Shown: piece after piece, positions 10,940 to 32,000 of the stretch
Position numbering within the stretch: the stretch's first letter is position 1
Layout of the letters: the number at the start of each line of letters is the position of its first letter
Origin: Citroniella saccharovorans
Lineage (GTDB): Bacteria; Bacillota; Clostridia; Tissierellales; Peptoniphilaceae
Length of the DNA stretch: 32,000 bases
Direction: 5' to 3'
Assembly: GCF_035481615.1 (NCBI RefSeq)
Contig: NZ_JAYKOT010000001.1
Coordinates: 90,070 to 122,069 of the forward strand
Position numbers and translations under genes: made by a program
The notes under the pieces: model-generated
The model's input: the letters and a program-made list of their open reading frames with translations, nothing else
Databases searched by the model: none
Told to the model about the DNA's origin: nothing

Positions 10940-10952
10940 TTCTTTGTTTTCA

Positions 10953-13547: not shown

Positions 13548-13624
13548 ACTTCCCCTCCTATATTTTAAAATCGTTTATATTATATCATAGAAATTATAAA
13601 TAAAACTTATAAAAATATTTTTCT

Positions 13625-13839
13625 GGAATTGTAGGAGAGCGTCTATTGTCCATTTCTTCTATTTTTCGTCTTGCCTTTCTGGACTTGCCATTTGAATTAA
13701 ATGACCTACGCACCATGAAACAATGTATCCACCTCCTTCATAATATCCGTTTTTACTTGTTCTTGCGTGGGTTACCTTTGCAAGTTGTAACTGCTACACT
13801 TGGCTTTTCTGCTATTACTAATTTCATTAATAGCTCCAT
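13625..13839 (-). pseudogene. remnant of a DNA topoisomerase III gene (N-terminal ~65 codons, with a deletion, a frameshift and a stop)
   Basis: Hand translation gives M(ELLM)KLVIAEKPSVA, then in the next frame NGYYEGGGYIVSWCVGHLIQMASPERQDEK*KKW. This matches the conserved TopB N-terminus (MKLVIAEKPS...GYxVSWCVGHL...PExYDxKYKKW). Homology ends near 13625. Confidence 0.6.
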
Positions 13840-13883
13840 AAATTAAAAAAAGAGCGAAAGATTTCTCTCTCGCTCAAAGTATT

Positions 13884-13913
13884 TCTCCCGAATAATATAT
13901 TATTTTCGGGAGA
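13884..13913 (-). terminator. hairpin downstream of the 487-aa gene (weak U-tract)
   Basis: TCTCCCGAA (13884-13892) pairs with TTCGGGAGA (13905-13913). Confidence 0.4.
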
Positions 13914-13934
13914 ATTCTATTTTCTTTTTTAACT

Positions 13935-15398: not shown

Positions 15399-15524
15399 AT
15401 ATTGTACTTAATTATACCATATTTTTGTATTGTTTATTCGATGATAGGACTTGAGATTTATAATAGTTCATCATCTTCAGCTAATGATTTTTGTGAGTTT
15501 TATAATTGTTAGATTCATCTTTTG

Positions 15525-15731
15525 TTAAGTCTTTACTTTCTTCAAAAATACTTTCAAACACCGCACCTTTTTTATAAGTCTTTTATTTCTTGCTTTTCTT
15601 TCTTGTTCATTAAGTTTTTTCTTCAACTGTCTTTTTTGATTTTGTAACTGCTTGATTTCTTCTTCTGCCATCAATATTTTTTCATCTATATTTTTCATCT
15701 TCCGTTTTCCTCTCTTTCTAAATTTGAGCAA
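15525..15731 (-). pseudogene. DUF3847-like small coiled-coil protein of Firmicute mobilisable elements, C-terminus out of frame at an A6 run
   Basis: The track ORF reads ...IKQLQNQKRQLKKKLNEQERKARNKRLIKKVRCLKV. With one extra A in the run (plus-strand T6 at 15568-15573) it would read RLIKKGAVFESIFEESKDLTKDE. That fits the ERKARxHRLIxRGAxxES pattern I recall for this family. Confidence 0.45.
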
Positions 15732-15739
15732 AGAAAAAA

Positions 15740-15762
15740 CAGTAAACCAATTTGATTTACTG
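15740..15762 (-). terminator. intrinsic terminator after the membrane protein gene
   Basis: CAGTAAA/TTTACTG stem with TTTTTTC following on the minus strand. Confidence 0.5.
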
Positions 15763-15927
15763 TTTCTTGAATTGCTATATTATGGTTTCTTGGTTTTAAG
15801 TGAATTACTTTACTTTTTCAATCTTTATCTTCTTTATTTTCACATTATATAAATTTAGCAAAATAATCCCTAATACAAAAGCCAGTTATGTTATCAATAT
15901 ATCATACTGATGTTATGAGTTTCTCAT

Positions 15928-16347
15928 TTACTTTAAGATACATTTTGCCTTATTGTTTTTTATTAGTTCTATAATAAGTGAGATTAATATCGATATAAGA
16001 ATACACCATATCCATATAAAAACGCCATAATGCTTACTTAGTTGATATTTTGTTTGTGAACTCATATCTTTAGTAATCTTAAGCATAGACTGATTTCTAA
16101 TATAATCACCCATAAAACGTCCTAAAAATAAACCACAAATATTTCCAAAAGTTATGGAATAACCTATATTTTTTCGAAAAAAAGTTATTAAAATTGCAAT
16201 TAATGCCACTAAAATGTAAAAAACCTTATTATGAGCTATCCACTTGAACAAATAATGTGAATTATCCACTAAGCTAAAAATCACATATATAAAGAACCAC
16301 AACAAGGCTTGAATAATTGGACTTATATTTTTTTTATGTGTGCTCAT
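15928..16347 (-). CDS. small integral membrane protein (4 predicted TM segments), function unknown
   Basis: 139 aa with four hydrophobic stretches. It lies directly downstream of a small signal-peptide ORF. Confidence 0.6.
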   Translation of the reverse strand: MSTHKKNISPIIQALLWFFIYVIFSLVDNSHYLFKWIAHNKVFYILVALIAILITFFRKNIGYSITFGNICGLFLGRFMGDYIRNQSMLKITKDMSSQTKYQLSKHYGVFIWIWCILISILISLIIELIKNNKAKCILK

Positions 16348-16352
16348 CTAAT

Positions 16353-16448
16353 TTACCCAATATTTTGTTCTAAATTATTGTCTACTGCTGCAAATGCACT
16401 AACACTCATACTCATTATTAATATAAAAACTAAAACTAATGACATCAT
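16353..16448 (-). CDS. 31-aa peptide that is almost entirely a signal peptide, leaving an 11-aa tail
   Basis: Hand translation: MMSLVLVFILIMSMSVSAFAAVDNNLEQNIG*. An upstream AGGAGG + ATG (16456) would be in frame, giving MKKMMS..., if the A-run had one more A. Below the ORF-track size cutoff. Confidence 0.35.
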   Translation of the reverse strand: MMSLVLVFILIMSMSVSAFAAVDNNLEQNIG

Positions 16449-16544
16449 TTTTTCATAATTAAATTCCTCCTTTGTTTTCGGAAATATTAGGATAAGTCGT
16501 TTCTCTGTTTGTTTTTAGTAAGGAAGAAATCTTTATCACCGTTT

Positions 16545-16864
16545 TTATACCTTTGAGGATTGTTGTAGTTCATTAATATCACCTCCATTTTAATAAATAT
16601 AGTCATATAATTCTTAACAACAATTACGACTATTACACTTATATGTTTCTTTTCCATCCAAGTCAAAAATCTTATACATACAAACTCCTAAAGCATTTGC
16701 TATATAGTTAGAAACATTTAGTCTAGGAATTGTTTCCCCTGTCTCTATTTTGTTTATACTTGTTCTTAAAATCCCTACTTTTTTACCAAGTCTATGCTGC
16801 GATAAACCTAGTGGTTTATGGTAGTTCCCAATTCTATTATCCCTTATTTCTTTTTCTTTGCTTA
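16545..16864 (-). pseudogene. XRE-family HTH protein gene without a canonical start codon
   Basis: An open frame after the TAG reads LSKEKEIRDNRIGNYHKPLGLSQHRLGKKVGILRTSINKIETGETIPRLNVSNYIANALGVCMYKIF..., a typical XRE HTH core. There is no ATG/GTG/TTG upstream of the HTH. Confidence 0.4.
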
Positions 16865-16872
16865 ACTATAGT

Positions 16873-16899
16873 ATTATCATAATTTTATTTTAATGTCAA
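16873..16899 (-). promoter_or_regulatory. near-consensus sigma-70 promoter facing the XRE / peptide / membrane protein genes
   Basis: The minus strand reads TTGACA (rc of 16894-16899), a 15-nt spacer, then ATAATA (rc of 16873-16878). Confidence 0.35.
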
Positions 16900-16997
16900 T
16901 GTTTTTTCTTATTTTAGATTACCTTTTCTCAGTCTATTATTATCTAATATCTATCCTAATATTTTATCGTTTTTCTCATTATTCTAAGTGTTTCTTT

Positions 16998-17252
16998 AAA
17001 TTTTTTTGTTTTTTTGGTTTTCTAGTAGAATTTTTATTTCTTCATCTGTTAGTACTTCCGCATTTTCTATAAGGCTTTCTAAGACTTATCCTCTTGTTAT
17101 TAGTCTATGTGTTCTTTCTTTTCTTCTTTTTACTATGTCTTATTTCAATATCTTCTTTTCTTGATTTTCACGTGCCTTAATCTTTCTTCAGTATCGTAAG
17201 TTTTATCTTTTATTTCTTTTGACACTTGACTTAGTGGATCTAATTTTTTCAT
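16998..17252 (-). pseudogene. decayed DUF3847-like gene (second copy)
   Basis: It starts MKKLDPLSQVSKEIKDKTYDTEERL... It then shifts frame to RRKERTHRLITRG*VLESLIENAEVLTDEEIKILLENQKNKKI*. There are several frameshifts and an internal stop. Confidence 0.5.
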
Positions 17253-17435
17253 ATAACACTCCTTTCTTACAATATAAAAAGAGATAACATTTCTGCTATC
17301 CCTTTCAAAATTTCATTATTAGAATTTTATGCCTTTTGAAATATCGCCTATATTTCTATAATGATTTTCTATTTCTTCTTGCTTCCTTCCTTTTAACCAT
17401 ATAAATCTATCCCTACGTTTTTTAATGTATTGTTG

Positions 17436-17714
17436 CTATTTAAATAAATCAGAATGTGAGCCAGTTCTTACGAGTGATAATACTAAAACCTCTTCTATTT
17501 TTTCATATATCAATAAAAAATCCGGCTCTATATGACATTCTCGAGTCCCTTTGTAAATCCCTTCTAATGAATGATCTCTATATTTTTCATCAGGAGCTTC
17601 ATCTTTTGCTATCTTCTCAATAATTTCAAACAGCTTTTCAATATCTTTTCCTTGTTTTTTAGCTTGCTTTAGATCTTTTTTAAATCTACTTGTAAACTTT
17701 ATCTTATACTTCAA
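17436..17714 (-). CDS. type II toxin, RelE/YafQ family mRNA interferase
   Basis: 92 aa: MKYKIKFTSRFKKDLKQAKKQGKDIEKL...YRDHSLEGIYKGTRECHIEPDFLLIY...TGSHSDLF. It overlaps the antitoxin stop by 11 nt. Confidence 0.9.
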   Translation of the reverse strand: MKYKIKFTSRFKKDLKQAKKQGKDIEKLFEIIEKIAKDEAPDEKYRDHSLEGIYKGTRECHIEPDFLLIYEKIEEVLVLSLVRTGSHSDLFK

Positions 17715-17976
17715 GGGCTTTCCTCAAGTCATCCATATTATCGTAAGAAATAACATTACTATCCTTAGCTATCATTCTTCCTTCTTCTATGGCTTTTATA
17801 GTTTCATCATTTGGAATATCAAGTTTTAAATCAAAAGGAATGCCCCTTTCTCTAATACTTGCCCTTAAAAACATATTAATTGCAGTAGTCATATTTAAGC
17901 CTAAACTGGAGTAGATTTTTTCTGCAGCTTCTTTTATTTCTTTATCAGTTCTTATATTCAAATTTGTTGTAGCCAT
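17704..17976 (-). CDS. type II antitoxin, RelB/DinJ family
   Basis: 90 aa: TTNLNIRTDKEIKEAAEKIYSSLGLNMTTAINMFLRASIRERGIPFDL, a ribbon-helix-helix DinJ-type N-terminus. Confidence 0.9.
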   Translation of the reverse strand: MATTNLNIRTDKEIKEAAEKIYSSLGLNMTTAINMFLRASIRERGIPFDLKLDIPNDETIKAIEEGRMIAKDSNVISYDNMDDLRKALEV

Positions 17977-18078
17977 TTCCTCATCTCCTTTGACTTAATT
18001 ATATGACAAAATTCGTTTACTGTAAATACATTGTCATTATGTTATCCCTGCTGATTTCATTATTTCTATTCTTCATTA

Positions 18079-18561
18079 TCATGCTCGAGTAAAACTTGGT
18101 TTGTATTCCCAATTTCTTAAAAATAATTTAGACCATGTATTAGTTAGTTTACCTGATAATCTAAAGTGAATACTATATAAAGCAAAAACTCTTGTTCCAT
18201 CATTTCTTGGCAAGGTAACTTCTTTTGTAATAATGCCTACGATTTTTATATCTTCTCCCTCAATTGTTATCGTTTCATATTCATCTAAATAATATGGTCT
18301 AATACCTAGTTTAGGTTTCTTTTAACATTAAATATCACTGCGATAAGATCATTATAATAATTTTCATTAAATGGATTACCTCTTAAATCTATTGCAAGTT
18401 TTTAAGTCTAGGTAAGTAGGTAAAGCCGTATTAAAATCTCCTTGTCTAATGATTGGGATAAATTTCCTATCATTGTGATTATTGTAGAGTTCCGAGAATA
18501 TTATATGACTTTCATATATGGCACCTTTTTCTCTATTATTAGCTTTCCTTTTATATTTCAA
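18079..18561 (-). pseudogene. decayed gene, N-terminally truncated and frameshifted; the first piece resembles the distal half of a TIR/SEFIR-type domain
   Basis: Three pieces in different frames: ...NNREKGAIYESHIIFSELYNNHNDRKFIPIIRQGDFNTALPTYLDL, then IDLRGNPFNENYYNDLIAVIFNVK, then GIRPYYLDEYETITIEGEDIKIVGIITKEVTLPRNDGTRVFALYSIHFRLSG... The TIR-like call rests only on a remembered motif (KFIPvlr.G...iP.yL). Confidence 0.3.
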
Positions 18562-18619
18562 TTACTTAAATTACTCTTAGGCTTTCGTAAATCTCTCGTG
18601 GGAATATTTTAAAAGTATT

Positions 18620-18800
18620 TTTTGAGTACCTTCATTATCCATAAATACTTTCAAACACTGCACCTTTTTTCTATAAGTCTTTTGTTTCTTGCTTTTCTTT
18701 CCTATTCATTAAGTTTTTCTATAGCTGCCTTTTTGATTTTATAATTCTCTATTCTTTCCTCTTTCTTTTTGATCTGTTCTTCAATACTTAACTTTATTCT
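18620..18800 (-). pseudogene. decayed DUF3847-like gene (third copy)
   Basis: ...EEQIKKKEERIENYKIKKAAIEKLNE*ERKARNKRLIEK then a frameshift to AVFESIYG. The DNA is clearly similar to 15540-15700. Confidence 0.45.
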
Positions 18801-18829
18801 TTTACACGCCACAATGCACACTTTCTTAA

Positions 18830-18864
18830 AATAAAAAACGATTAGATTTTTATTTCTAATCGTC
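18830..18864 (-). terminator. intrinsic terminator after the decayed methyltransferase/specificity locus
   Basis: ACGATTAGA (18838-18846) pairs with TCTAATCGT (18856-18864), with a T-run on the minus strand (plus-strand A-run 18832-18837). Confidence 0.6.
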
Positions 18865-18873
18865 TTTAATCTT

Positions 18874-20170
18874 TCATCCTAAATATTTGTTAAGCACATC
18901 ATTTATTCTTTTATTTAAGTCTAGTTGATTTTCTTATAGTTTATGAATTTTCTCCTCTAATTTATAAACTTTTTCCATTTCATGATTTTGTATTTCTATA
19001 TTAGGAACACTGATATTAATACTTTTAATTCTGTCTATTGACGCCCTATGTGATCTTGAAAAGCCAATAGCTTGTCCCTCTTTTTCTAATACATGGGTCA
19101 TATAGCATTCCTCCCATATTTTTTATTTGAATACCTTCATTTCCCTTACTTTCTGACCAGCTATAAGCTAAAAATTCACTCCGTTCTTTTACTGAACTTG
19201 GAGACTTAATAATTAAAGTTTTCTGATCTTTAACCAATGCAAAATAAAATATTTTATCCTTTTCTATTTCTTTAACAAATGAATAAAACATAGAATTTAT
19301 CTTTTGTATTTGTTCACCTTTATCTAACTTTTTAAAAGTAACACGTTCTAAAAGGTTTTTAGTTCTGTAGTTTTACTAAAATCATCATAATACATTTTAA
19401 AATATTCTATATTTTCAAATTTATGGTAATTTTTAATCTCTTCTATAAAAGCTGTAAAGGTTTCTAAATCTACTCCTATATGTTCAATATAATCACCTAA
19501 AATTTCATCATCTTTCCAAAGGCTTAATTTTTGATTGGAGAAAATAGCCTGTATGTTATCTTCAATAATCTTATAATGTTTCGGTGGTTCGTTATATTTT
19601 TCTAAAAAAAAATTATTGTATCTTTACCTGTTTTGCCTAAAGTTGAATTTCCCAGCTTAACAATAGAGATTATTCTAAAATTCTTTATAATTATGCTTCT
19701 AGTCGCTTTATAACTACTTTGAGTACTGCTTAAAAAAGTGTCTGGGAGAATTACAGTCGCTATACCATTAGGCTTTAATAGTTGTAAGATTCTTTCAACA
19801 ACTAAAACCTCTATTTTGCTACCTTGATTAGATATTAAATCTATCAACTCTAATTTATTTTCTAATAATTTTAAATGAGGTTTAAAAGTTTCTATTGAGT
19901 AGGGTGGATTAGCAACAAGAATATCAAAAAAATCATTTTTAATTCCCATTTCTTTATGGTTATCCAGTCCATCTCCAAAAATAATATTTCCCTCTCCAGC
20001 TCCATTCATAAAAAGAGATATCTTAGATACTCTTGCAAGCCTATAGTCTTTCTATATATCATAGATGTTTTCACTAACCCAATCATTGTTAGAATTTCCC
20101 TCTACTTTATTAATTAAATCTATTCCCTCTGTCAAAAAATGTCCGCTCCCGCAAGCATAGTCTATCAAAA
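18874..20170 (-). pseudogene. decayed N6-adenine DNA methyltransferase with specificity-subunit-like tail (type I hsdM/hsdS-like or type IIG), 5'-truncated at the BREX island junction
   Basis: Motif I is DCVLIDYACGSGHFL (rc of about 20130-20175). An in-frame TAG follows (NIYDI*KDYRLARVSKISLFMNG). Motif IV is VANPPYS in ORF 19602..20009. Further frameshifted pieces include ORF 19046..19291 and a tail ISVPNIEIQNHEMEKVYKLEEKIHKL*ENQLDLNKRINDVLNKYLG. No N-terminal region is present. Confidence 0.65.
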
Positions 20171-20435
20171 CGCAATCTTTGATACAATGGCTATCTGTGG
20201 CAAAGTGCCGAAAATGCCTTGAATCCGTGCTATTCCTGGGCGTTTTCCTGTATCTATGGCCACTCTAACAGCAGCCCATTGAACCCATTTGTGTTCGATA
20301 TGCTGTGGTTGTTGATACCAAAGCGACACCTTCTTTCTCAATAATTAAAAAATATGGCAAGAATCGGCTTGATAAGATACGAAACCTGTTCTTCTGAATT
20401 TAATGTATCGTAATACATCGCTGACGCTCACCTCC

Positions 20436-22556
20436 TTACTCTACACCCAGTGCCTTAAATACTGCGTCCTCAGCACTACTATAGAAAATTAAATTGAAAC
20501 TTCCAATCAGGTCTGCCGGTACGGTTCCGAGCTCCGCTGCTGATGTGATAGGCAGAAGCACTCTCTTTGCTCCACTATCCAAACATACCTGCAGAGAATT
20601 TGCCAGCTCGTCCACCTTCATTATAGTTCCACTGATGCTGATTTCACCAAGTACAGCAAGACTGCTGAGTGCTGGTTTTCCAAGTGCAATCGAGCAAATC
20701 GCAATCAGTGTGGGAAGGGACAGCTTTCCTGTCATGCCGATGCCCTGCAAATCCTGATAGTTGATAATATAATCTTTTGTTGTGATACTGATGGAAGCAC
20801 TGATACGGTTTCCATTTGCCTTCAGAAAGTTGAAAGCTGTATTAGTGGATTCCTTTGCATCACGATCACTTCCGATACCTGTTCTTTCGAACTTTCCGTT
20901 ACCCGGAAGCATCTGGCTCTCCAAGCGGAATAAGCCTAACATACCGCTCTTACCATGAGAGACGGTATATACCTGTCCAGGATTGCACATTCCTTCTGGG
21001 ATGAGCTTACCGCCACCTTGCTCAGGTACGGAAACATAATGTTCCTCAAAGGTTTCCTTATCTATGTAGGAAAAGTTAACATCGTAGAACTCCATACCGC
21101 CCAGCTTCTTAAGCTGCTCCTTAACACGCCTACGCATCTCCATAGAAATCTGGAGAACTTCTTCTACTTCTTCTTTTGTAAAACTGCCATCCGGATACAG
21201 AAGTTTTAAATATCCGTCTGCCATTCTGCGCACGGCGATAGTATCTCTCTGATTAAGATTCTTACCGAGACGGAAATAATTATCAATAGCATCACCGTAC
21301 TGCTCCTTACGAAGCTCACGAATGAACTCTGCAAGATAGTCACTGATAAATCCATAATCATTTGTAAAATGCTCTGGTCGAAACTTCGGAATCTCCCATC
21401 CTGGCAGATAGCAATGCATACGGTCAAGGAATGCCGTGTCTGTTCCCATTTCCGGAGGGAATGGGTCAAATAAGCTTGATGTCTTCAAAAGTACATCTAC
21501 GCTTTGATTGATATTACCAACGAATACCATAGAAGCAGATGCTGCCTTTTCTTCCTTTCCTCGTGCAAAGGAACCAGAAGCCATGTAATCTTTCATTATC
21601 TGCACGCCATCTTTATCCTTGAATTTGATACCTGCAACTTCGTCGAAGGCTACGCAGTCCCATAATCCAACCAGACCAACAGTCTTGTGAGCCATGTTAT
21701 AAAATAAGTTTGCTACTGTCGTCTGGCCTCCAGAAACAAGGATGCTATTCGAAGAAATCTCCTTATAAAGATGTGATTTACCTGTGCTTCGAGGTCCCAG
21801 CTCGCAGAGGTTGAAGTTGTTCTCTACAAGTGGAATCATACGAGTCAAAAGAAGCCACTTCTCACGATAAGAAAGTTCGTCTGGCTCCATACCAATGGAA
21901 CGCATCATAAGATCCAGCCATTCCTCTTTGGTAAAAGCCTTACGTCCCTGTTTCAAATCCTTGATATCGATATGAGGCATCTGAATCGGTGTCAGCTTAC
22001 GAATGCTAATCGGAAATATGTCCTTCTGTTTTTTCTTTTTGGACTGAAGTGTGTTTCCATCTACATCGATGATTCCAAAGTTATTATCACCTTCGGTTTC
22101 ATAATCCAGCTGAACAATACACCAGATACCACCGCAAAGAAGTCGGTCATACTTTTGTGGATACTCATCAGTAATAGGGATATTGGATAATCCCAGATTG
22201 GAGAATTCCGCAAAGAAACAGTCCTTCTTAATATCCAATCGCACTGTTACCATATCAATGATGGTATGGCTGCCTCTACTTCTAAGACGAGACAAGACTT
22301 TCTGCGCTTCATCTGGTCTTACAAAGTTATCAGCAAGGATATGCTTGACATTCTGCACACCCTGCTCGATAACCTCATCATCGTCTGAACTGCAATATTG
22401 ACCCAATAGAAACTCAAGAACATAAACCGGCACATTTGCACCCTCCTTGATTTTCTTAGTCAGGTCTTTGCGGACAATCTTTCCATCAAAGTTTTGACGC
22501 AATTTGTCCTTTATTATTTCACGAGAGCCTTCGCCCACTTCAAGATTGTCACTCAT
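20436..22556 (-). CDS. brxL: BREX system Lon protease-like protein BrxL
   Basis: 706 aa with a P-loop (LGPRSTGKSHLY) and a C-terminal Lon-protease-like domain (GIGMTGKLSLPTLIAICSIALGKPALSSLAVLGEISISGTIMKV). It is the last gene after pglZ, as in type 1 BREX. Confidence 0.9.
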   Translation of the reverse strand: MSDNLEVGEGSREIIKDKLRQNFDGKIVRKDLTKKIKEGANVPVYVLEFLLGQYCSSDDDEVIEQGVQNVKHILADNFVRPDEAQKVLSRLRSRGSHTIIDMVTVRLDIKKDCFFAEFSNLGLSNIPITDEYPQKYDRLLCGGIWCIVQLDYETEGDNNFGIIDVDGNTLQSKKKKQKDIFPISIRKLTPIQMPHIDIKDLKQGRKAFTKEEWLDLMMRSIGMEPDELSYREKWLLLTRMIPLVENNFNLCELGPRSTGKSHLYKEISSNSILVSGGQTTVANLFYNMAHKTVGLVGLWDCVAFDEVAGIKFKDKDGVQIMKDYMASGSFARGKEEKAASASMVFVGNINQSVDVLLKTSSLFDPFPPEMGTDTAFLDRMHCYLPGWEIPKFRPEHFTNDYGFISDYLAEFIRELRKEQYGDAIDNYFRLGKNLNQRDTIAVRRMADGYLKLLYPDGSFTKEEVEEVLQISMEMRRRVKEQLKKLGGMEFYDVNFSYIDKETFEEHYVSVPEQGGGKLIPEGMCNPGQVYTVSHGKSGMLGLFRLESQMLPGNGKFERTGIGSDRDAKESTNTAFNFLKANGNRISASISITTKDYIINYQDLQGIGMTGKLSLPTLIAICSIALGKPALSSLAVLGEISISGTIMKVDELANSLQVCLDSGAKRVLLPITSAAELGTVPADLIGSFNLIFYSSAEDAVFKALGVE

Positions 22557-22579
22557 TACTGCTCCTTCCGAACAAGCTC

Positions 22580-25225
22580 TTAGCTAAAAAAGTCAAACTC
22601 ATCGACTGCAAATGCGATGTCAATCTGAAACTCTTCTTTCTGCGGCATCTTGAGACCTGTTTCGTCTGCGATGACCAAATAATAGCTTGCTCTATTATCA
22701 TACTTTAGTGATTTCAGGTTGAAGCTGCAGCGGAATGTACGCTCCTGTCCATTATCACTGGTCTTATCTGCGATAATCTTTGCTGTATCACTTATCTGCT
22801 TTCCATTGGAATCAACAAAATACAGCAGATAGTTTGCTGCACTGCGGTTATCGCCAACCGCATCCTTTTGATAGAAGTTCAGCGAGAATATCATATTACT
22901 GATTTTACGGCTTGCGGAAAGAAGTCCTACTTCTACAGGCCTCGTGTCATACTTAGCCTTATTGCGCTGATAAGCCTTGGAATCATTGCGAAGGTAATGA
23001 TATTCAATAACTGGAACAACCATCTCCTGAAGACTGATGCCGCCGTGCACGAAATTGAGGCCTCCACCTTTCTTCTTAATGCGAACGCTCTCTCTCGGCG
23101 CAAAGGCATCGTATCCATCGTCCATGAATTTCACCGGAAGTAAATAATCTGGAGCTGCTCCTTTACGGGTAATCAGATAGCGGCGGTCAATCTCCACATC
23201 CTGCTCACTGGGCGAGGTCTTATCCACCTTGGATTCTTCGGAGAGCGGACTGTAGGTATAAAGAAATCCGTGATCAGCGGTAATGTAAACACGAGTACCA
23301 CCGAACTCATTGCGGATGATTCTTACAATATTTTTGATTTCTTCAATTGCATCATCACATGCCGGAAATACCATGCTGTCAGAAGTATGGCTGGCCTCGT
23401 CTACCTTATCATGGTAAATATAAACCACTTCCATACCCTTAACTAAGGCACTCCTTTCCGCACGTTTCATCGGTGCAATATCCTTATATTTGAGGGCTAC
23501 GCTTTTGATATTTGCAGCCTTGAGAACTTTATCTCGATTGCCTGCATCTGTAGACATTCCATCTGCAAGAATCTGCAAATCACCGCAACTGCGCTCACTT
23601 ACAGATAAGTTTTTATGTGGCAAGAGTGCTGCCATACCGAATTTTGTAACAGTAGGGAAGATACCTTCACAGGAGCTAAGTGCAACCTTACTCTGTGTCT
23701 CACGACGAAGCTGGTCTGCCAGAGATGCTGCCAACTCATAACGGAAGGCATCTGAGATTATGACAAACACACGATTGTCCTTACTCTTAACATTCTGATC
23801 ATAAAAGTCCACCTGCTGTGGCACTTCCATAATGCGACCATACTTTGCGAGTTCATCAGCGCAAGCATCGGACCAATTATTACCCAGCTCACCAAGGAAC
23901 CAGTGCGTATAAAGGCCCTCCACCTTATCAGTCACCTGCTTGAAAAGATCATCCAGATGGTCATTTCCGACCTTCAGGCTCTTTCCAAACGCCAAGTGAT
24001 ACTTACGATAATAAGTATCCATACAGTAGTAATCTTCGGTATACTCTTTCCAGACATTTCTTGCCTCCACAGTATGGAAACCCGCAGAGTGTTCCAAGAA
24101 GAACGCCTGCATCTTTGCAACCTGAAGAATACCCTCGTAGTAGCATTCCACATCGTCGTACCACGCCAGAGTCCGACGCTTCTCGACTGTATTTGTGATC
24201 ACATCTACATTGATAATATTATTACTGATTTCTGTCATTATCTGAGTCAGGATGCACTCGTTGACGCAAGGGAACACCTCAGTAGCTACCAAGTCATCCA
24301 ATGGTACCTGCTTGAAACGCTTTCTGAGAATGAGGTCTTCTTCCACATTTCGCAGAATTTCAACGAGGTCCTGTCTGTTATCTCCTGCAATCCACTCAGA
24401 CACAAAGTCGTAGCACCAAGCCTGATGCGGTGTGGAAATAAAGCTATCGAGGCCTGCCAGATACTCCATACGAAGGGTTCTGGTTGTTGCAGTAAGCAGA
24501 ATATGTGTCACCAACTTCTCGATGGTGGAATCGTCTCCTTCAAAATATCCGGTCGCCTGCTTTACAAGTGCCCAGAATGGCGCTACAGCTCCATAATTTA
24601 CAAGGCTCTGGAACACCTCATTGGACTTTATATCGCTTCCACCACTTATGACAGCTTTTACTATGCTATTAGGCTGAGCATTCTTGGTTCCACAGATAGC
24701 CGCCATAACAGTAAGATGCATCTGTGATGGCGTGCTGATGCCCTTATTGAGCTTTGCGAATGCCGCTCTTCTGGTCTGTGCTCCGAAGAATTTCTTATAA
24801 AGCTTAACAAGTCTGCGGAAATCCGGAGTCTCCGGAAGGTAGGTCTCATTCATCCAGATAGACACCAAGTCAGCTCTAAACTCTTCGCTGTAAAGCTCGA
24901 TATTCAAAAGCCAGTTATCCTCCTGTGACTTATATGATATCGGACTGTAAACCAGATAGTTGCTGGTGGTATCATCCACATTCAGTAGCTTCTTAGCTGC
25001 AAAGTTGTTGGTGCCTGTAAGCACCAGTAGCTTTACATTATCTATCTGAATATCATCTAGCTTGTCCTCAAACTCCCTATCCTCGTCATACCAGAAGATT
25101 ATACGACGCTTATAAAACTCCGGAAGTGGTGCAGCAAATCGCTTATTCAAATCTTGGATTATTGTGTCTAAATGACCCAGACCACCCTCTCGTTCTTTCG
25201 GGCTCACCTTGTCCATACTGGCCAT
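22580..25225 (-). CDS. pglZ: BREX-1 alkaline-phosphatase-superfamily protein PglZ
   Basis: 881 aa. The N-terminal region reads RRIIFWYDEDREFED. The PglZ domain carries NRVFVIISDAFRYELA and TRVYITADHGFLY. AAGGAGG RBS 7 nt upstream of the ATG. Confidence 0.9.
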   Translation of the reverse strand: MASMDKVSPKEREGGLGHLDTIIQDLNKRFAAPLPEFYKRRIIFWYDEDREFEDKLDDIQIDNVKLLVLTGTNNFAAKKLLNVDDTTSNYLVYSPISYKSQEDNWLLNIELYSEEFRADLVSIWMNETYLPETPDFRRLVKLYKKFFGAQTRRAAFAKLNKGISTPSQMHLTVMAAICGTKNAQPNSIVKAVISGGSDIKSNEVFQSLVNYGAVAPFWALVKQATGYFEGDDSTIEKLVTHILLTATTRTLRMEYLAGLDSFISTPHQAWCYDFVSEWIAGDNRQDLVEILRNVEEDLILRKRFKQVPLDDLVATEVFPCVNECILTQIMTEISNNIINVDVITNTVEKRRTLAWYDDVECYYEGILQVAKMQAFFLEHSAGFHTVEARNVWKEYTEDYYCMDTYYRKYHLAFGKSLKVGNDHLDDLFKQVTDKVEGLYTHWFLGELGNNWSDACADELAKYGRIMEVPQQVDFYDQNVKSKDNRVFVIISDAFRYELAASLADQLRRETQSKVALSSCEGIFPTVTKFGMAALLPHKNLSVSERSCGDLQILADGMSTDAGNRDKVLKAANIKSVALKYKDIAPMKRAERSALVKGMEVVYIYHDKVDEASHTSDSMVFPACDDAIEEIKNIVRIIRNEFGGTRVYITADHGFLYTYSPLSEESKVDKTSPSEQDVEIDRRYLITRKGAAPDYLLPVKFMDDGYDAFAPRESVRIKKKGGGLNFVHGGISLQEMVVPVIEYHYLRNDSKAYQRNKAKYDTRPVEVGLLSASRKISNMIFSLNFYQKDAVGDNRSAANYLLYFVDSNGKQISDTAKIIADKTSDNGQERTFRCSFNLKSLKYDNRASYYLVIADETGLKMPQKEEFQIDIAFAVDEFDFFS

Positions 25226-25241
25226 GCTGCCACCTCCTTAC

Positions 25242-26241
25242 TTAATAAAAGTTCAAGCCGCATTTTTCAGCAGCAACCTTCGACTTCAAGTCATTAATAA
25301 TCATAGCCTTTATCTCAAGCCATGTAACAGAAGTATTTGTTCGCAACTCTTGTTTTATTCTTTCAAGGCATTTAACAAGAATCCTACGTACAGTTGATTC
25401 CAATTCGAACAATTTAGATTTGGAAATATTCTGCCCATCTCCTTCATGTAGAGATTCTGACCTAAGATGGTAAAATACTTTCATTCTCGCATACATCTGG
25501 CCTATTGCTGTCGGTGTATTCTCTAGCATTACTGCGACTCTTTTGGAAAGTACTTCTTTTTTTCCCCCGCTGATGATGATCAAGTAGTGTCATTTCAAGA
25601 GCCGTAGTAAATTGTTCAAATCCAGTTGCTATGTCAACTTGCTCAAGACCCCAAACAAACTCATCAATACAGTTTTTAAAAATTGTATACTCTGAGCCAT
25701 GATAATCAGATAAAAACTGATTACATGACATTACCTCATCCGGCACCAGAGAAAACACCCTATCATCAGTAGTATTTCTTGTTACATTAATACTGGTGTT
25801 GTGCAAAATATTTTTCATAAATCCAATAGAAAATACATTGTCAAGGAAAATCTCTTTTGTACCGATGTTACCTTCTTTGAAAAGATGCAACAACGAAAAC
25901 ATCTTGTACAAATAATCTGTTTCCAACTTGTTGTGAGCTTTTACTTGATTACCGCACATCATATCTTTATCGGTGTACACGCCCGGTCCTTTAATTTGGT
26001 TCTCTATCTGATAAACATCCTTTTTGCTAATGCATATCAGGTACTTTCCATTTTCATCAGATTTAATAGAGTCTAAATAGTCAACTGTTAGATCCCCTCT
26101 ACAATCTGTAATTTCCTCCTTAAATGGCAAATTATCGATATAATTTTTTTCAAAAGAGTAGCCATTGCCTATTTCTATTCCAAGGATGGTCTCATCACAG
26201 TATAGGACAGGTGCATTAATAGAAACATTTACCTCAATCAA
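25242..26241 (-). CDS. HEPN-motif (R-x4-H) protein of unknown family embedded in the BREX operon; annotated as two overlapping ORFs (259 aa + 113 aa) that fuse to ~339 aa if one base is removed from a G5A7 run
   Basis: TTG start at 26241, 8 nt after an AAGGAGG that overlaps the pglX stop. The frame change falls at the minus-strand run GGGGGAAAAAAA (plus strand 25557-25568). The downstream frame contains FYHLRSESLHEGD. The stop at 25242 is followed directly by the pglZ RBS. GC is about 33% versus about 47% in the flanking genes. Confidence 0.6.
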
Positions 26242-26254
26242 TTACGGTACCTCC

Positions 26255-29200
26255 TTACTTAATCTTTGCCAAGACATCTTGGAAAATCGAATAGTTCTTC
26301 TTCACACCATCATCAAGGTCGATGGAAATCATCTGGTCCGCCAAGTGGTGTATTTTTTCTTCGTATTCATGGATTTCAGTCGCTTGATCACTCAGTGTTT
26401 TAAGCTTCTTACTCAGTCTAACTCTCTCGCTGGTAGATGAACTTTCCATGCGGTTCTCCAAATCTGCAATCGCAGTACGGTAGCGAGCCTGCTGCTCATG
26501 GACATAATCCGTACGAATACGAGCGAGGGTATCCAGCTGATAGCGATGCATGTAGATCAAACATTTGAAACCGTTCTTCTTACCAGAATCAAACATCCAG
26601 TAAATCGGACGTTTCTGATACATCTTGCAATGGTCTTTGTAGAAGCCGTTTAAGAAATACTTTCTGATAACATCTTTAGGCTGACCATTAGCTCCAAGAG
26701 CATCAGCAATGAAGCTCAGATTTTCCTCCAGTGTGTCTTTTCCATATACGACTTCTACAAACTTTACGAATAGGCCAACAATATCATCTTCAAAATACTC
26801 ATCATCGCAAATAGGAATAATGTTATCCTTGTCTGCTGCAAAGCTAGGATACTTGGAAGCATCCCAATCTCCCCCAGCATAGGCAAGACCATCTACATCA
26901 AGGGAATAACGGCCGAACATACAGCCAACTGCATAGGAAATAAAGGAGACGACCTCGTCCTCTTTGGTGCGGATATACCTGCTGCCCTTCATGCTCTCCG
27001 GCACATCCTCCTTGCTGTCAAATATCCGCTGCACCGTAATATCCTTGTCCGCCACCTCCGGTGTGAGCTCATCTTGAAGGCCATAAATGTCAATAAAGAT
27101 GCGGTTAAGTTCTTCCTCGTTAGCTTTTAACTGATTGAACCGGTCATCACATTCAGCCTGCCACTGGTCAAAGGCTTCGGCAATGGTAGAAACGTTGCGA
27201 AGCAGTGGATGATACTTGAAATCCCATGAGGTTTCAAAAGAATCCCAATCATGTTTTGCTACACCTATATTATTTCTGGTTAGATTGCCTACTCTTGTAT
27301 AAATGTTAGTTTTTCTAATAATTGGCAGCGACGCAACATGACCTACTTCATAATTCAATGTCGGAGATATGGCAGATAGAATGTCTAGTGCTATCTTTGA
27401 GTTAACGAAACCTAGATCGTAAAACATGTCGTCAGGATTATTATAAAAAATACAGCAACCAGCAACATCAAATATAAATCCTTGCGGATAATATCTAAAT
27501 GCTATATCTCCACTTGATATCTTAGACCAGCTCAAACATGCTTTGAAATACTCACTTATGCTCTTTATTGTCCTAGTTGGAGACTTATATAATGATGCAG
27601 CATAAGCTTTTATTTCTTTCCCATCATTCTCATAGTTAACCAGATGGTCAATGTTTCCATACCATTTCTTAAACTGCCCTCCTTTGTTATAAGGGAACCA
27701 TTTCTTATAAGATTTTTGTGCCTCACTAGCATTACTATAGTTAAAGCCTATTCTTGGATAAGCAACTTCATACCACAATCTTAAAAATCGTTTGTTATCC
27801 GAAGTAGCCATTCCTTGCCTTGTGTCACCTTTGGTTTTTAAATCTATTCCATTGGAAAAGTTTTCTATTAAATTCTCACTCACCCAATACGCCACAGGGC
27901 TGCCAGGGATTTTGGAGAAGTTGGACTGATCTACTGAGTAGCGATTCTCACCTACAAGGAACATATCTTCTTTTCCTTGCTGCGTGGTCGGCTCAATTAG
28001 GCGGCAATACACCCCATTATAGTCTGTAACGTAACTTTTGCGGATAGCAAAAGATGTCGTCTGCACTACCTCTCCACCTATTTCTTCAAAGGCTCTTGCA
28101 CCCAAATGCACCATGTTAATAATATCTTTGTCGAGAATTTTTTTGCGAAGTTTCTCAAAGCTGGACAGGAACATCCACGCATGTTGCGTTATCATTCCTT
28201 GTAAGCCATTTGCTTTTAGCATTTTGCCACAAACCTCGATAAATACAGCAAACAAATCGCTTTTGCTGTCAGGATAATTCTTTTTTACATAATCCGACAG
28301 CTTTGCACTCATACCCGATGCACCCATATACGGCGGATTTGTCACAACCACATCATATTTCTGTGCCAGTGCTTCTGCTACCTGCACCAAAGTTTTTAAA
28401 CCAAGAGCTTCATCCGTGTAAATGGACATCACTCTCTCACTCTGTATTTCATCAAAACGAACGTACAATGCATCCCAATCCAGATTGCTAACTGTGATGA
28501 TAGACCCATATTCCTTTGCGTCATGTAGTTCGCTGGTAATGGTATCCATGGCCTCTTTCAGCTTGGCATCGCCATTGCAGAAATAGTCTACTGCATGTTG
28601 GTCCACATGATTGCTTTCCACAATGGCATAAACATGGGGCTGCACTTTGCGGCGAAGGAATCTCTTGTCATATTGGCAAGCCTTCATCATAACAGTAAAA
28701 TAGCTAAGCTGCGCCGCACGGTCATCAATATCTAAACCATAGATGTTGTTTTCTACAATGCTTGTAACCGCTTCACGAGTGGTATAGCCATAGGATTCAT
28801 AAATCTGCACAAGAACGTCAAACATATAAGCCAAAATATGGCCACTTCCTGAGCAAGGGTCGATGCACAGAATATCTTCCGGTTTCAATGCTTTATATTC
28901 TTCACGAATAGTCGCAAGCTGCGCCTGAACTTCCGGCTCCTGCTCTGCTTCTTCCAAATAATATTTCCAATTGGATTTCAGTCCACGGCCCAGACCGCCC
29001 TCTCGTTCATCTACGATGAACTTCACCTTGTCGTTCGGATGTCCTTCTACCCACAAACGGCCCAGGGAGTTTTGAACCATGTAGCGGACAATCCAGTCCG
29101 GTGTGAAAAGCTGAGTTGCTGCCGGAATATTTTCCTTTGTGATTTTCACATTCTTCTTAAGGGCGGCAAATACGTCGTCCTTCTTTTCACTGTTACAATA

Positions 29201-29755
29201 CTGATACAGCCAGCCAATAATCTGGACAGCATCCTTCCAATCTTCCTCATCTATCAGCTCAATCATCTGATGCAAGGTGCTGCCCTCACGAAGAAGGTTG
29301 TCTGGGAATAGAAGCTCCGTGTAGTCAGAGAGTTTCTGGAACATGCCCGGAAGCACGCTATTCAGCGCATTGCATTGGGTAATCAAAAGATACTTATATA
29401 GCTTGTCATCATCGTTGGCTTCCTTGTAAGCATAGACTTTCTCCATGTCAAGCCCATCCAGCTCCAGATAGATTGCCTCTGTCAGTATCTGAGGCTTGAA
29501 TGCGTTATTCTCATCTGTAAAAACACGCACTCTCGTAGGGAGATAACCATTTACCTCCATAAAACGCAGTGCAGAGAAGCGGTTAAACCATGTGTAGGCA
29601 ACCTCTTCCATGACATGCTCGTATCCTTTTTCTTTGATTCTCTCGATCAAGGCAGCTCTCTGTTTCTTCTCAGTAGAAGAAAGCAGATGACCACCTACGC
29701 TATCGTCATTCGGATTTCCGATCTCTTTATCGGAAACCCCATATTTAAGCGCCAT
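26255..29755 (-). CDS. pglX: BREX-1 adenine-specific DNA methyltransferase PglX
   Basis: Motif I is CIDPCSGSGHILAY and motif IV is VVTNPPYMG (about 28328-28339). The size and the position between brxC and pglZ fit PglX. The track ORF extends to 29899 but would then overlap the upstream 152-aa gene by 68 nt. The ATG at 29755 (MALKYGVSDKEIG...) or the GTG at 29764 (GGAG 10 nt upstream) is more plausible. Confidence 0.9.
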   Translation of the reverse strand: MALKYGVSDKEIGNPNDDSVGGHLLSSTEKKQRAALIERIKEKGYEHVMEEVAYTWFNRFSALRFMEVNGYLPTRVRVFTDENNAFKPQILTEAIYLELDGLDMEKVYAYKEANDDDKLYKYLLITQCNALNSVLPGMFQKLSDYTELLFPDNLLREGSTLHQMIELIDEEDWKDAVQIIGWLYQYCNSEKKDDVFAALKKNVKITKENIPAATQLFTPDWIVRYMVQNSLGRLWVEGHPNDKVKFIVDEREGGLGRGLKSNWKYYLEEAEQEPEVQAQLATIREEYKALKPEDILCIDPCSGSGHILAYMFDVLVQIYESYGYTTREAVTSIVENNIYGLDIDDRAAQLSYFTVMMKACQYDKRFLRRKVQPHVYAIVESNHVDQHAVDYFCNGDAKLKEAMDTITSELHDAKEYGSIITVSNLDWDALYVRFDEIQSERVMSIYTDEALGLKTLVQVAEALAQKYDVVVTNPPYMGASGMSAKLSDYVKKNYPDSKSDLFAVFIEVCGKMLKANGLQGMITQHAWMFLSSFEKLRKKILDKDIINMVHLGARAFEEIGGEVVQTTSFAIRKSYVTDYNGVYCRLIEPTTQQGKEDMFLVGENRYSVDQSNFSKIPGSPVAYWVSENLIENFSNGIDLKTKGDTRQGMATSDNKRFLRLWYEVAYPRIGFNYSNASEAQKSYKKWFPYNKGGQFKKWYGNIDHLVNYENDGKEIKAYAASLYKSPTRTIKSISEYFKACLSWSKISSGDIAFRYYPQGFIFDVAGCCIFYNNPDDMFYDLGFVNSKIALDILSAISPTLNYEVGHVASLPIIRKTNIYTRVGNLTRNNIGVAKHDWDSFETSWDFKYHPLLRNVSTIAEAFDQWQAECDDRFNQLKANEEELNRIFIDIYGLQDELTPEVADKDITVQRIFDSKEDVPESMKGSRYIRTKEDEVVSFISYAVGCMFGRYSLDVDGLAYAGGDWDASKYPSFAADKDNIIPICDDEYFEDDIVGLFVKFVEVVYGKDTLEENLSFIADALGANGQPKDVIRKYFLNGFYKDHCKMYQKRPIYWMFDSGKKNGFKCLIYMHRYQLDTLARIRTDYVHEQQARYRTAIADLENRMESSSTSERVRLSKKLKTLSDQATEIHEYEEKIHHLADQMISIDLDDGVKKNYSIFQDVLAKIK

Positions 29756-29831
29756 CTGGCTCACACGGGAGATTAACTCCGGCGAGCTTCTGTAGCGAAT
29801 TTTTTTATCGCATTTTTGTTCATATTTTTTA

Positions 29832-30290
29832 TCATTCCTTAAACAGGTTATTAAATAAATCTCCAATTTCCTTTTTTGTAGGAACAGTGTCAACTCCATC
29901 CAGATTTTTAAATGGAATTACCATATCCTTTGCGAATATAATTTTTGCGCAAAAGAGAGTAAGTTTGTATTCAGCAAAAAGCAAAATACAAGTTAGTACA
30001 ATAACCGCTAGCAAAAGCAAGCATATTTCAGTCGTTGATGTTGGACTAAAAACTGCAAGTATATACCCAGCAACCAAATCTACAAAAGCTATCATATTCA
30101 GATAAGTATTATGTGCACTTTTTTGTAGCTTTTCTTTCTCAATTTTACAATTATCATTTTCATCTCGTTGAGCGATATTGCTACCAGGGAAACAGTTTTT
30201 AATTATCATTTCTTTTCTACACTTAACACTATTCAAAAGTAGTATCAATGCTCCTGATAGTTGAAATACTAACATTCCAACAAATAGCAT
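29832..30290 (-). CDS. small 3-TM membrane protein, non-canonical gene inside the BREX operon
   Basis: 152 aa. The ATG at 30290 lies 8 nt after an AAGGAG that overlaps the brxC stop (TAAGGAGCTGCTAATATG). The hydrophobic segments are MLFVGMLVFQLSGALILLL, MIAFVDLVAGYILAVF and ICLLLLAVIVLTCILLFA. GC is about 32% (hand count over 29941-30180). Confidence 0.65.
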   Translation of the reverse strand: MLFVGMLVFQLSGALILLLNSVKCRKEMIIKNCFPGSNIAQRDENDNCKIEKEKLQKSAHNTYLNMIAFVDLVAGYILAVFSPTSTTEICLLLLAVIVLTCILLFAEYKLTLFCAKIIFAKDMVIPFKNLDGVDTVPTKKEIGDLFNNLFKE

Positions 30291-30302
30291 ATTAGCAGCT
30301 CC

Positions 30303-32000
30303 TTAGCATAATTTGATTCCGTCGCAATCCTTCATCATTGCAGTAAGATATGTCCTGACTTGTTCCACGTATTTATCTATATCTTCTTGAGTTTCCAATG
30401 TCTTTGATGGGAATACTGTCTGACGGTACACATTCTTGATAAACTTCTTCGGTGCTGGAGGAGTTACATTTCCATCTTCTTTCGGTTTGATGGTCGGTGC
30501 AACGGGAATCTTCGGATGACGGATGCTATCGATTATATTGACTGTTTCATCTTTGTATTCCCACATCTGTGGTACCAGACCATCGAGGAGCTGCAGGCTT
30601 TCGAGCTCTGCTACTCTTTTTTTCTTCTGGTCAAAGAATTTGTCGGCAAGCCCAGAAATTGTTCTAGCTTCATAGACATCACCGGCAAGAGTATGAATCT
30701 CAGCTAAACACTGGCGAATGATTTCAAGAATCTCAGCACGCTTTGCTTGGAGAAGTCTTCCATGACCCTCACGAACTGTATCCATCAATCCGTTCAGTTC
30801 AGGGATTCTCTTATAAACGCTGGTCTGTCCAGCTTCCACTAGGGTAATCTTACGAATCTCATTCAGAGCCTGATTTGCTTCCTCTTCTTTCTTTTGAAGA
30901 TAAGAGAGGTCGTTTTTAAGTTCCGCTTCCATTCGAACAGCTGCATCGAATACCTGTACCTGATTCTTAAAGAATCCTTCTACTCTCTGCATGTCGTCCT
31001 TATTATCGAGAAGGTTGTCTTCTTCTTTCAGAAGTCGGTCAATTAGTGCCATGTTGTCCTTGCGCTGAGAAAGAATGTTATCCATTAGATTGAGCGCATT
31101 TATCACAAGCGAATGGTCCGGATATTTATGACCCTCGTAACGCTTGTTCAGTTCTTCATAATGTATCTTTTGTTCTTCAAATTTTTCTACAATGTATTTT
31201 ACAAGTCCGTCTTCATCGTCCGGAACATCCATGACATCGAAGTATTCACGCAGCAATTCTTTGACGGCACGCATCTTCGTCGCAGTAATGACCTGACGCT
31301 TGGAGATACTGGTTTTGCCAATCTCGCTTTTTTTACGAAGCATATCTGGAAGTTTCGGATTACTTGGCTGGATGGTTTCTCCACCGTATTTGACCGTCAC
31401 CTTCTGGTCATAAATCAGCATCGCAGCGACGACTGCAATATCGATTTCTTTCCAGCCATAAGGAATTGACTGAAAACGGCTCTGCACATCTGCCATCGAA
31501 GTAGGAAGTTTCTTTGCATACTGCATCTCAAGATACTCTTCCATCTTCACAGCAGCATCATGGTTTTCTTCCATGCCTGCCATGACACCGTTCAGATGTT
31601 CACCCTGCAGAATAGAAAGTACATCTGCATCCGTGTCAGCGTTCTTGGTTATAAGGCCGAGTTCGCTATAAACATGCGTTACCAAATATTCTAGCGCTTG
31701 GTCCAGCTTGCTCTTGGCATCGCCGCCCTTAATTTCTATATGCTCTCCATCCACATAGAACTCAGCACCGATGATTGCCTTCTTCAAATCTTCCTCTGCA
31801 GAAGACTCGTACTTCGCAGCCTCATTCTGATGATTGCGGATGATGTCCTGCACAGACTTCGGAAGCTGCGCTACGTTACGCTGCTTTACATACTTACGTA
31901 CCTTCATTGCTTTTTCCAAAGACTCATAGTAAGGAGTTTCAGAAAGCACAACGATTGCCTGATTCTTAGACTCTGTCATAAGGCGAAGTTCGCTCTTCTC
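30303..32000 (-). CDS. brxC: BREX system P-loop protein BrxC (PglY-like), C-terminal ~565 codons; gene continues beyond the right window edge
   Basis: The frame is open from the stop at 30303 to the window end (codons upstream of the track Met at 31979 read EKSELRL). It is a large alpha-helical protein immediately upstream of pglX in a brxC-pglX-pglZ-brxL arrangement. The N-terminal ATPase part lies outside the window, so the call rests mainly on synteny. Confidence 0.7.
   Translation of the reverse strand, partial: EKSELRLMTESKNQAIVVLSETPYYESLEKAMKVRKYVKQRNVAQLPKSVQDIIRNHQNEAAKYESSAEEDLKKAIIGAEFYVDGEHIEIKGGDAKSKLDQALEYLVTHVYSELGLITKNADTDADVLSILQGEHLNGVMAGMEENHDAAVKMEEYLEMQYAKKLPTSMADVQSRFQSIPYGWKEIDIAVVAAMLIYDQKVTVKYGGETIQPSNPKLPDMLRKKSEIGKTSISKRQVITATKMRAVKELLREYFDVMDVPDDEDGLVKYIVEKFEEQKIHYEELNKRYEGHKYPDHSLVINALNLMDNILSQRKDNMALIDRLLKEEDNLLDNKDDMQRVEGFFKNQVQVFDAAVRMEAELKNDLSYLQKKEEEANQALNEIRKITLVEAGQTSVYKRIPELNGLMDTVREGHGRLLQAKRAEILEIIRQCLAEIHTLAGDVYEARTISGLADKFFDQKKKRVAELESLQLLDGLVPQMWEYKDETVNIIDSIRHPKIPVAPTIKPKEDGNVTPPAPKKFIKNVYRQTVFPSKTLETQEDIDKYVEQVRTYLTAMMKDCDGIKLC

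Follow-up and report, generated by a model that had tools for sequence, protein, structure and literature searches.

From our analysis of a 32,000-nt stretch of the Citroniella saccharovorans genome (the window, meaning the whole of the DNA analysed), we describe a minus-strand gene, here called gene X, that separates pglX from pglZ in a type 1 BREX (bacteriophage exclusion) operon and whose product carries a predicted HEPN-type domain at its C-terminus. The junction and the operon around it comprise the following features, with positions counted from the first letter of the window:

25242..26241, minus strand: gene X, encoding a 332-aa protein of an uncharacterised family (~333 aa); frameshifted here, native product WP_378143087.1
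26250..26257, minus strand: stop codon of pglX (TAA, 26257-26255) within TAAGGAGG, overlapping the Shine-Dalgarno sequence of gene X
25557-25568 in plus-strand positions, read on the minus strand: G5A7 run GGGGGAAAAAAA, spanning invariant Gly-Lys-Lys codons, with an extra A at 25563 that shifts the frame
25223..25239, minus strand: Shine-Dalgarno sequence (AAGGAGG, 25239-25233) and ATG start (at 25225) of pglZ, directly past the stop of gene X
26255..29899, minus strand: pglX, the BREX methyltransferase gene (Pfam and PADLOC); the 5' end of the listed open reading frame (ORF) is probably distorted by a 1-base indel at 29781
22580..25225, minus strand: pglZ (Pfam and PADLOC)
20436..22556, minus strand: brxL (Pfam and PADLOC)
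30303..31979, minus strand: 3' part of brxC (Pfam and PADLOC); the gene leaves the window

The products BrxC, PglX, PglZ, and BrxL place the locus in a type 1 BREX system, as a preliminary description made from the sequence alone had proposed. With brxA and brxB, which were found upstream in another assembly of the same strain (locus L115), the genes follow the type 1 order brxA-brxB-brxC-pglX-pglZ-brxL in a single orientation. Gene X starts with a TTG at 26241, 8 nt past the pglX stop, and its N-terminus, M-I-[DE]-V, is kept in homologues; its own stop codon is at 25244-25242. In the window, the gene is covered by two minus-strand ORFs that overlap, one of 259 aa (26241..25462) and one of 113 aa (25583..25242), and removal of one A from the G5A7 run merges both into one 332-aa ORF containing FYHLRSESLHEGD. 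The preliminary description had read the pglX stop, the TTG, the two ORFs, the G5A7 run, the R-x4-H motif in the downstream part, and the passage from the gene X stop to the AAGGAGG and ATG of pglZ exactly as they stand in the sequence; it was also right that a one-base removal fuses the ORFs, although it put the length of the product at ~339 aa. A promoter and terminator scan around gene X returned counts that did not differ from those in shuffled sequence and is uninformative.

An exact-sequence look-up recovered both the truncated and the repaired gene X products from public data. In its truncated form the product has 259 aa and is recorded for Citroniella saccharovorans as WP_324618621.1 (locus tag VLK81_00540), on one contig of 467,824 bp. 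The record that equals the repaired 332-aa protein exactly, from the same species, is WP_378143087.1 (ACFOW0_07115), present on 13 contigs. A second assembly of the same strain, GCA_042651875.1 (L115), differs from the window over 16,758 bp by 0 substitutions and 3 single-base indels: A7 in the window versus A6 in L115 at 25563 in gene X, GG versus GGG at 29781 (42 nt into pglX, at its 5' end), and T9 versus T10 at 19613, where a methylase fragment has 135 aa in the window versus 224 aa in L115. At 25563 and 19613, the two indels with clean ORF calls, the longer ORF is found in L115. The difference at 29781 is probably an assembly indel distorting the N-terminus of PglX; in L115, pglX begins right after the stop of the preceding gene, without overlap. 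The G5A6 form of the gene X run occurs in eight loci of the same strain (L115-L122, from GCA_042651875.1 and at least 7 read-set assemblies, SRR271451xx), and the site is in frame in all ~110 homologous loci, some of them with in-frame A7 runs. The A-run codes for Gly-Lys-Lys, which is invariant in close relatives. Out-of-frame copies of gene X were seen only in the window and in L001, a noisy read-set assembly which has G4A5 in gene X and further indels in pglX and brxL.

Conceivably, the frameshift could be real in this strain, where gene X would then be either a pseudogene, inactivated only recently, or a contingency gene toggled by slippage between G5A6 and G5A7. The A7 of the window itself, the fact that the G4A5 of L001 falls in the same wrong frame, and the nature of the tract, a composite homopolymer of 11-12 nt, speak for this possibility. 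It is nevertheless quite doubtful, given the G5A6 of GCA_042651875.1 and the 7 other assemblies, the mere 3 indels that separate the window from GCA_042651875.1, with the shorter ORF in the window at 25563 and 19613 as is typical of sequencing error, the indels that L001 also carries in other genes, the intact frame of the ~110 homologous loci including those with A7, and the invariance of the encoded Gly-Lys-Lys. A phase-variable contingency gene was rejected on the same eight strain loci and ~110 homologous loci. Since the same strain carries G5A6 elsewhere, encoding the exact repaired protein, the split is not a native feature as the preliminary description had presented it, and therefore neither the 'dead passenger' that it had considered nor a slippage switch applies. 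The frameshift is in all likelihood an assembly artefact, the alternative being a very recent slip in one stock, and gene X is intact in the organism, where it encodes a single-chain 332-aa protein.

The repaired protein has 278 full-length homologues in a 90%-clustered database, nearly all of 331-338 aa and all named 'hypothetical', from Lachnospiraceae, Anaerocolumna, and other hosts; an exhaustive profile search gathered 822 representative clusters at E<=0.001. No Pfam domain was found in the 278 homologues, the repaired protein gave no usable match in Pfam, NCBIfam, PHROGs, or PADLOC, and a Pfam scan of all 58 close relatives gave no consistent match. By these searches, the gene X family has no Pfam, NCBIfam, or PADLOC v2 model. 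The ratio of nonsynonymous to synonymous substitution rates (dN/dS) among BREX-embedded orthologues ranged from 0.05 to 0.36, which is indicative that gene X is under purifying selection. AlphaFold2 (AF2) with the family alignment produced a confident two-domain model with a predicted local distance difference test score (pLDDT) of 92.7 and a predicted template modelling score (pTM) of 0.92, and the protein was divided accordingly:

25756..26241, minus strand: N-terminal alpha/beta domain, residues 1-162, with a long helix and a conserved LFKEGNIG turn; unrecognised fold (AF2)
25242..25755, minus strand: C-terminal all-helical domain, residues 163-332, pLDDT 96.9 when modelled alone (AF2); assigned as HEPN-like
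25446..25463, minus strand: R260-S-E-S-L-H265, the motif R-x4-H, where the catalytic centre is predicted; R260 and H265 without variation among 58 close and 51 distant relatives

The N-terminal domain had no match in Pfam, PDB sequence-profile, or Foldseek searches, so that the preliminary description, which could not place this part of the protein, is confirmed on that point; we propose it to be a putative sensor or regulatory domain. A Foldseek search of the full-length model against the PDB gave no meaningful match, nor did a PDB sequence-profile search with a first alignment (A1). With a second alignment (A2), the top PDB profile matches were to sigma-70 region 2 (E=0.06). This candidate was rejected as a chance motif resemblance because the match is not significant, is located in the N-terminal domain, and rests on the likeness of LFKEGNIG to LIQEGNIGL.

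HEPN domains are defined by an Rx4-6H motif that closes helix-3, a polar residue after the R, and a conserved acidic residue upstream (PMC3710099). In the alignment of the gene X family, which reaches down to 16-20% identity, the only invariant residues are E216, R260, H265, and R285, while Y257, G267, and G124 come close to invariance across the superfamily. S261, the polar residue next to R260, is invariant in the core family and mostly S in distant members, where it is occasionally N or G. The AF2 models place R-x4-H at the C-terminal end of a predicted helix (243-266) that is followed by a loop (267-273) and a further helix (274-301), and the upstream acidic residue, E216, lies in helix 204-219, is invariant across the superfamily, and aligns with the 'ALE' of ApeA. 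An R-x4-6-H motif, a polar residue after the R, a helix end at the motif in the predicted structure, and an upstream acidic residue were thus all found, an arrangement that, as modelled, matches the one defining HEPN. The C-terminal domain is therefore predicted to be HEPN-type, with a putative active site at R260-x4-H265 helped by E216 and R285. The HEPN character that the preliminary description had read from the motif is upheld at the level of these features (the invariant R-x4-H at a helix end, the polar residue, the upstream Glu, and the all-helical bundle), with family matches that stay below threshold.

Profile and fold searches agree in direction. Among distant relatives, no Pfam family recurred as often as HEPN_RiboL-PSP (PF18735), whose matches were colinear over the motif region in every case, each time aligning profile positions ~90-188 of 191 with the region of the protein that carries R-x4-H. 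Five distant members matched it individually at E 0.0046-0.23, with 11.8-17.3 bits versus a gathering threshold of 28.4 that was not reached, and an aggregate scan recovered it in 4 of 51 distant members (best E 0.0015). The window protein and its 57 close relatives gave no match to PF18735. DUF4145, another HEPN family, had two weak matches among distant relatives. A PDB profile search paired the ALE, the R-x4-H, and the downstream R with the HEPN domain of Ec4ApeA (9hxm), at a non-significant E=0.28. Foldseek with the model of the C-terminal domain gave 4nqf, 'HEPN domain protein', as its highest-probability match (prob 0.33, not significant) and also listed AbiV, and Csm6 appeared as a weak match in the full-length Foldseek search. 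PADLOC on 51 relatives returned only weak matches, to Csx1/Csm6 and CARF_HEPN, and one distant relative bears the NCBI name 'HEPN domain-containing protein'. The Pfam and Foldseek searches that the preliminary description had suggested for the repaired protein brought no Pfam family and no significant Foldseek match. The homology statistics are below threshold throughout, yet all of them point, if weakly, toward HEPN.

We then performed a comparative analysis of the genomic context of gene X by tblastn with the BREX proteins of the window, in species-representative genomes (17 loci) and in metagenomes (80 loci). After identical proteins were collapsed, 76 unique sequences were left, of which 53 were informative and 23 had flanks too short. 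Among the informative ones, 31 are BREX-embedded at the pglX-pglZ junction on the same strand, and 22 stand outside BREX, each with 2.5 kb or more of sequence to either side. The embedded sequences form several deep clades. Two intact relatives, 74% and 86% identical, occupy the pglX-pglZ interval of complete type 1 BREX operons, and even at 43-50% identity many relatives are flanked by PglX on the upstream and PglZ on the downstream side, all on one strand, with intergenic gaps at the junction of typically 11-17 nt. By its position and orientation, gene X is a genuine insert in the BREX transcription unit, co-oriented and tightly packed, and this holds for the family; the placement within the unit claimed by the preliminary description is thereby corroborated. 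Pairwise identities of the gene X protein and PglZ are moderately correlated (Spearman 0.37), which suggests a mix of co-inheritance and exchange. One clade (L026, 9661-12551; similarly L071, L072, L077-L083, and L107) carries three cargo genes at the junction, where gene X is preceded by a gene for a 108-aa DUF4357/RAMA protein and followed by one for a 515-aa protein with Schlafen (AlbA_2) and HATPase_c_4 domains. Because three cargo genes stand there in a row, this clade suggests that the pglX-pglZ junction is a general cargo slot in BREX operons of Clostridia. In a separate locus (L037, 5628-6993), an 84%-identical gene X follows just the final ~120 codons of pglX, and neither pglZ nor brxL occurs in the next 6 kb downstream; the locus is possibly what is left of a BREX operon, with the accessory gene retained.

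The copies outside BREX are single genes. A toxin-antitoxin partner, either a cognate nucleotidyltransferase or another conserved antitoxin, was sought beside 18 of these loci and none was conserved; the genes beside it in BREX loci are pglX and pglZ, and a HEPN toxin-antitoxin pair of the HepT/MNT type was accordingly set aside. Non-BREX copies adjoin a type I restriction-modification (R-M) system with Mrr and HNH genes, stand at the end of a prophage, or occupy the edges of integrative or mobilisable elements in which serine recombinases, relaxases, TraG, C5-methylases, Fic, and Bro-N are abundant. No member of the family was matched by tblastn in sequenced plasmids and phages, and the family is rare in IMG/VR (3 loci). 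As these contexts show, the gene X family can exist autonomously on mobile elements. The co-occurrence with BREX or other defence genes for which the preliminary description had proposed a survey is seen among the informative homologues, the majority being in BREX and the rest occurring singly, in defence islands or mobile elements.

The GC content of gene X was 35.0% across the whole gene and 33.0% over 25621-25920, the latter being the value that the preliminary description had counted by hand. Its figure of ~47% for the adjacent pglX was too high, as pglX has 42.1% (41% in the 600 nt adjoining gene X) and pglZ 44.6%. The host flanks have ~26-32% GC. The BREX operon as a whole looks horizontally acquired because the island (20400-32000) has 40-46% GC versus ~26-36% in the surrounding region (1-20000). 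The GC content of gene X is nearer to the host value than is the rest of the island. Across BREX loci, gene X is below both pglX and pglZ in 32 of 32, with means of 35.5% versus 43.7% and 46.1%. Since the dip is seen in every one of these loci, it is a property of the family and not evidence of a recent event here; a recent foreign insertion of gene X in this genome, as read from low GC, is therefore rejected.

A survey published in 2026 (Nucleic Acids Res, PMC12839542) reports that BREX operons often harbour nucleases, among them Schlafen-family RNases and standalone HEPN endoRNases, and proposes them as 'backup suicidal effectors'. The occurrence of HEPN genes within R-M operons had been pointed out already in 2013, and it was in such a setting that ApeA was first noted (PMC3710099). 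The embedded endoRNases of PMC12839542 share with gene X that an HEPN-type gene is flanked on both sides by BREX genes. That work is a survey at the level of domains, and its main text does not name the gene X family, the fixed pglX-pglZ position, or the N-terminal domain. ApeA (a system of Gao et al. 2020; PDB 9hxm) is likewise a single-protein defence enzyme whose N-terminal region is unrecognised and whose HEPN domain is C-terminal. It differs in having ~580-620 aa arranged as N-terminal, Mid, and split-HEPN parts, where gene X has 332 aa and two domains, and in that Ec2ApeA is activated by deoxydinucleotides. The PADLOC model of ApeA matched neither the gene X protein nor its 51 relatives, and we do not count gene X as an ApeA. 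In ApeA, a ligand in the pocket between the N-terminal region and HEPN activates the enzyme, which cleaves tRNA anticodon loops (bioRxiv 10.64898/2026.01.26.701840). A mechanistic analogue is DARNA, or PD-T7-3 (bioRxiv 10.64898/2026.02.22.705581), also a single-protein HEPN tRNase of abortive infection that is activated by an infection cue; its domain order is reversed, with an N-terminal HEPN and a C-terminal Pds5-like domain in 456 aa, and it has no sequence match to gene X. PrrC, like DARNA, is similar in principle to ApeA as an HEPN immune enzyme. PARIS in BREX loci and BrxU (GmrSD) of pEFER are precedents for second-layer defence genes in or beside BREX, going by the main text of PMC12839542, although the proteins concerned, an OLD-ABC ATPase with TOPRIM in PARIS and a ParB-HNH protein in BrxU, are unrelated to gene X. 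The kind of element, an HEPN-type accessory effector embedded in BREX, is therefore already known. What is new is one specific large family without a Pfam, NCBIfam, or PADLOC v2 model, together with its two-domain architecture as modelled and, judged by the alignments and loci at hand, a core of four invariant residues and a strong preference for the pglX-pglZ junction. The 'undescribed BREX-associated module' of the preliminary description holds in so far as the family is uncharacterised, and does not hold for standalone HEPN endoRNases in BREX as a class, which the main text of PMC12839542 already describes.

The way in which BREX blocks phages is not yet clear, and some protection remains when PglZ is inhibited. 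As the overall best explanation, and one to which we give somewhat better than even credence, gene X would encode an intact single-chain protein of HEPN type that acts as an infection-triggered RNase and forms a second, abortive layer beside BREX. This explanation builds on the integrity of the gene, its family membership, the pattern of conservation, the predicted topology of the fold, the position in the operon, and the recurrence of that position; RNase activity and toxicity, the trigger, and any functional coupling to BREX are what it would add. Gene X would be translated from the polycistronic BREX mRNA between pglX and pglZ, and this placement would provide both co-expression and a second defence layer. 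Because of the analogy with ApeA, DARNA (PD-T7-3), and PrrC, we propose that the protein most likely dimerises via its HEPN domain into a composite, metal-independent RNase site, that it would be auto-inhibited until the N-terminal domain senses an infection cue, and that, once activated, it would cleave tRNA or mRNA so that the infected cell is arrested and the infection aborted.

A closer tie to BREX can also be imagined, with gene X as a dedicated accessory subunit of the Clostridia-type system whose N-terminal domain watches the state of PglX and PglZ or a phage anti-BREX factor. The protein would then be a built-in guard, an HEPN RNase that fires when BREX is blocked, with the stand-alone copies on mobile elements as secondary escapes; we think this reading, of which the guard role had also been suggested in the preliminary description, unlikely. 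Somewhat less unlikely, and a possibility to be kept in mind, is that gene X is an autonomous single-gene module, abortive or selfish, which occupies a permissive cargo slot at the pglX-pglZ junction and has no functional link to BREX. The 22 of 53 informative relatives that stand alone in mobile elements without a conserved partner speak for this, and the other cargo (DUF4357/RAMA and Schlafen-like genes) held by the junction in some BREX loci, the GC content below that of the BREX neighbours in all 32 loci, and the only moderate co-divergence with PglZ point the same way. Set against this, the position and orientation persist between clades that are only 43-50% identical, the gaps of 11-17 nt and the stop overlapping the Shine-Dalgarno sequence imply obligatory co-expression, and no other systematically recurring context was seen. 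A further alternative concerns the protein itself, which might be no toxic nuclease at all and instead a non-catalytic or regulatory BREX accessory that binds RNA or nucleotides, its helical domain only superficially like HEPN. The non-significant homology to any HEPN family would fit, and a helical bundle with an R...H pair may arise by convergence, but the four residues invariant over 822 clusters are exactly those expected in an HEPN active site, non-catalytic HEPN domains typically lose the motif (PMC3710099), and copies that stand alone in mobile elements speak for an activity independent of BREX; we regard this alternative as improbable.

Several other genes of the window were recorded alongside. 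A 152-aa ORF at 29832-30290 (minus strand), between brxC and pglX, has about three hydrophobic segments and is a predicted small membrane protein with no match in Pfam, NCBIfam, or PHROGs; its position is shared by other BREX loci (L022, 53% identity; L078, 62%; and L115), and it is a second embedded gene in this operon, so far without explanation. The pglX ORF of the window seems to start at 29899, overlapping this 152-aa ORF, and its PADLOC match starts only at residue 41. Downstream of brxL, at 18934-20009 (minus strand), are remnants of an N6-adenine methyltransferase (Eco57I/N6_Mtase) and short downstream ORFs, which have the look of a decayed R-M gene of type I or IIG, and a pair of a RelB antitoxin and a YafQ/ParE-type toxin lies downstream of the operon at 17436-17976 (minus strand). 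About 5 kb beyond brxL, at 13935-15398 (minus strand), is a gene for a 487-aa protein with Schlafen AlbA_2, HATPase_c_4, and winged helix-turn-helix domains, which is 26% identical (E 2e-36) to the product of the 515-aa gene found between gene X and pglZ in L026 (Fusicatenibacter and related bacteria). An 864-aa secreted protein with leucine-rich repeats and C-terminal cell-wall-binding repeats is encoded at 10953-13547 (minus strand) and is unrelated to gene X.

For users of this assembly, our comparison is a warning that the split of gene X, the odd 5' end of pglX, and the truncated methylase fragment are indel artefacts. Gene X itself is compact, highly conserved, and found in the same slot between the methyltransferase gene and pglZ in many BREX operons of Clostridia and Tissierellia. 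Because it occupies this slot in so many operons and also occurs as a lone gene on mobile elements, it is a convenient experimental handle on the idea of a 'layered BREX'. If the HEPN role proves true, the family would add a new N-terminal sensor domain to the single-protein HEPN immune RNases.
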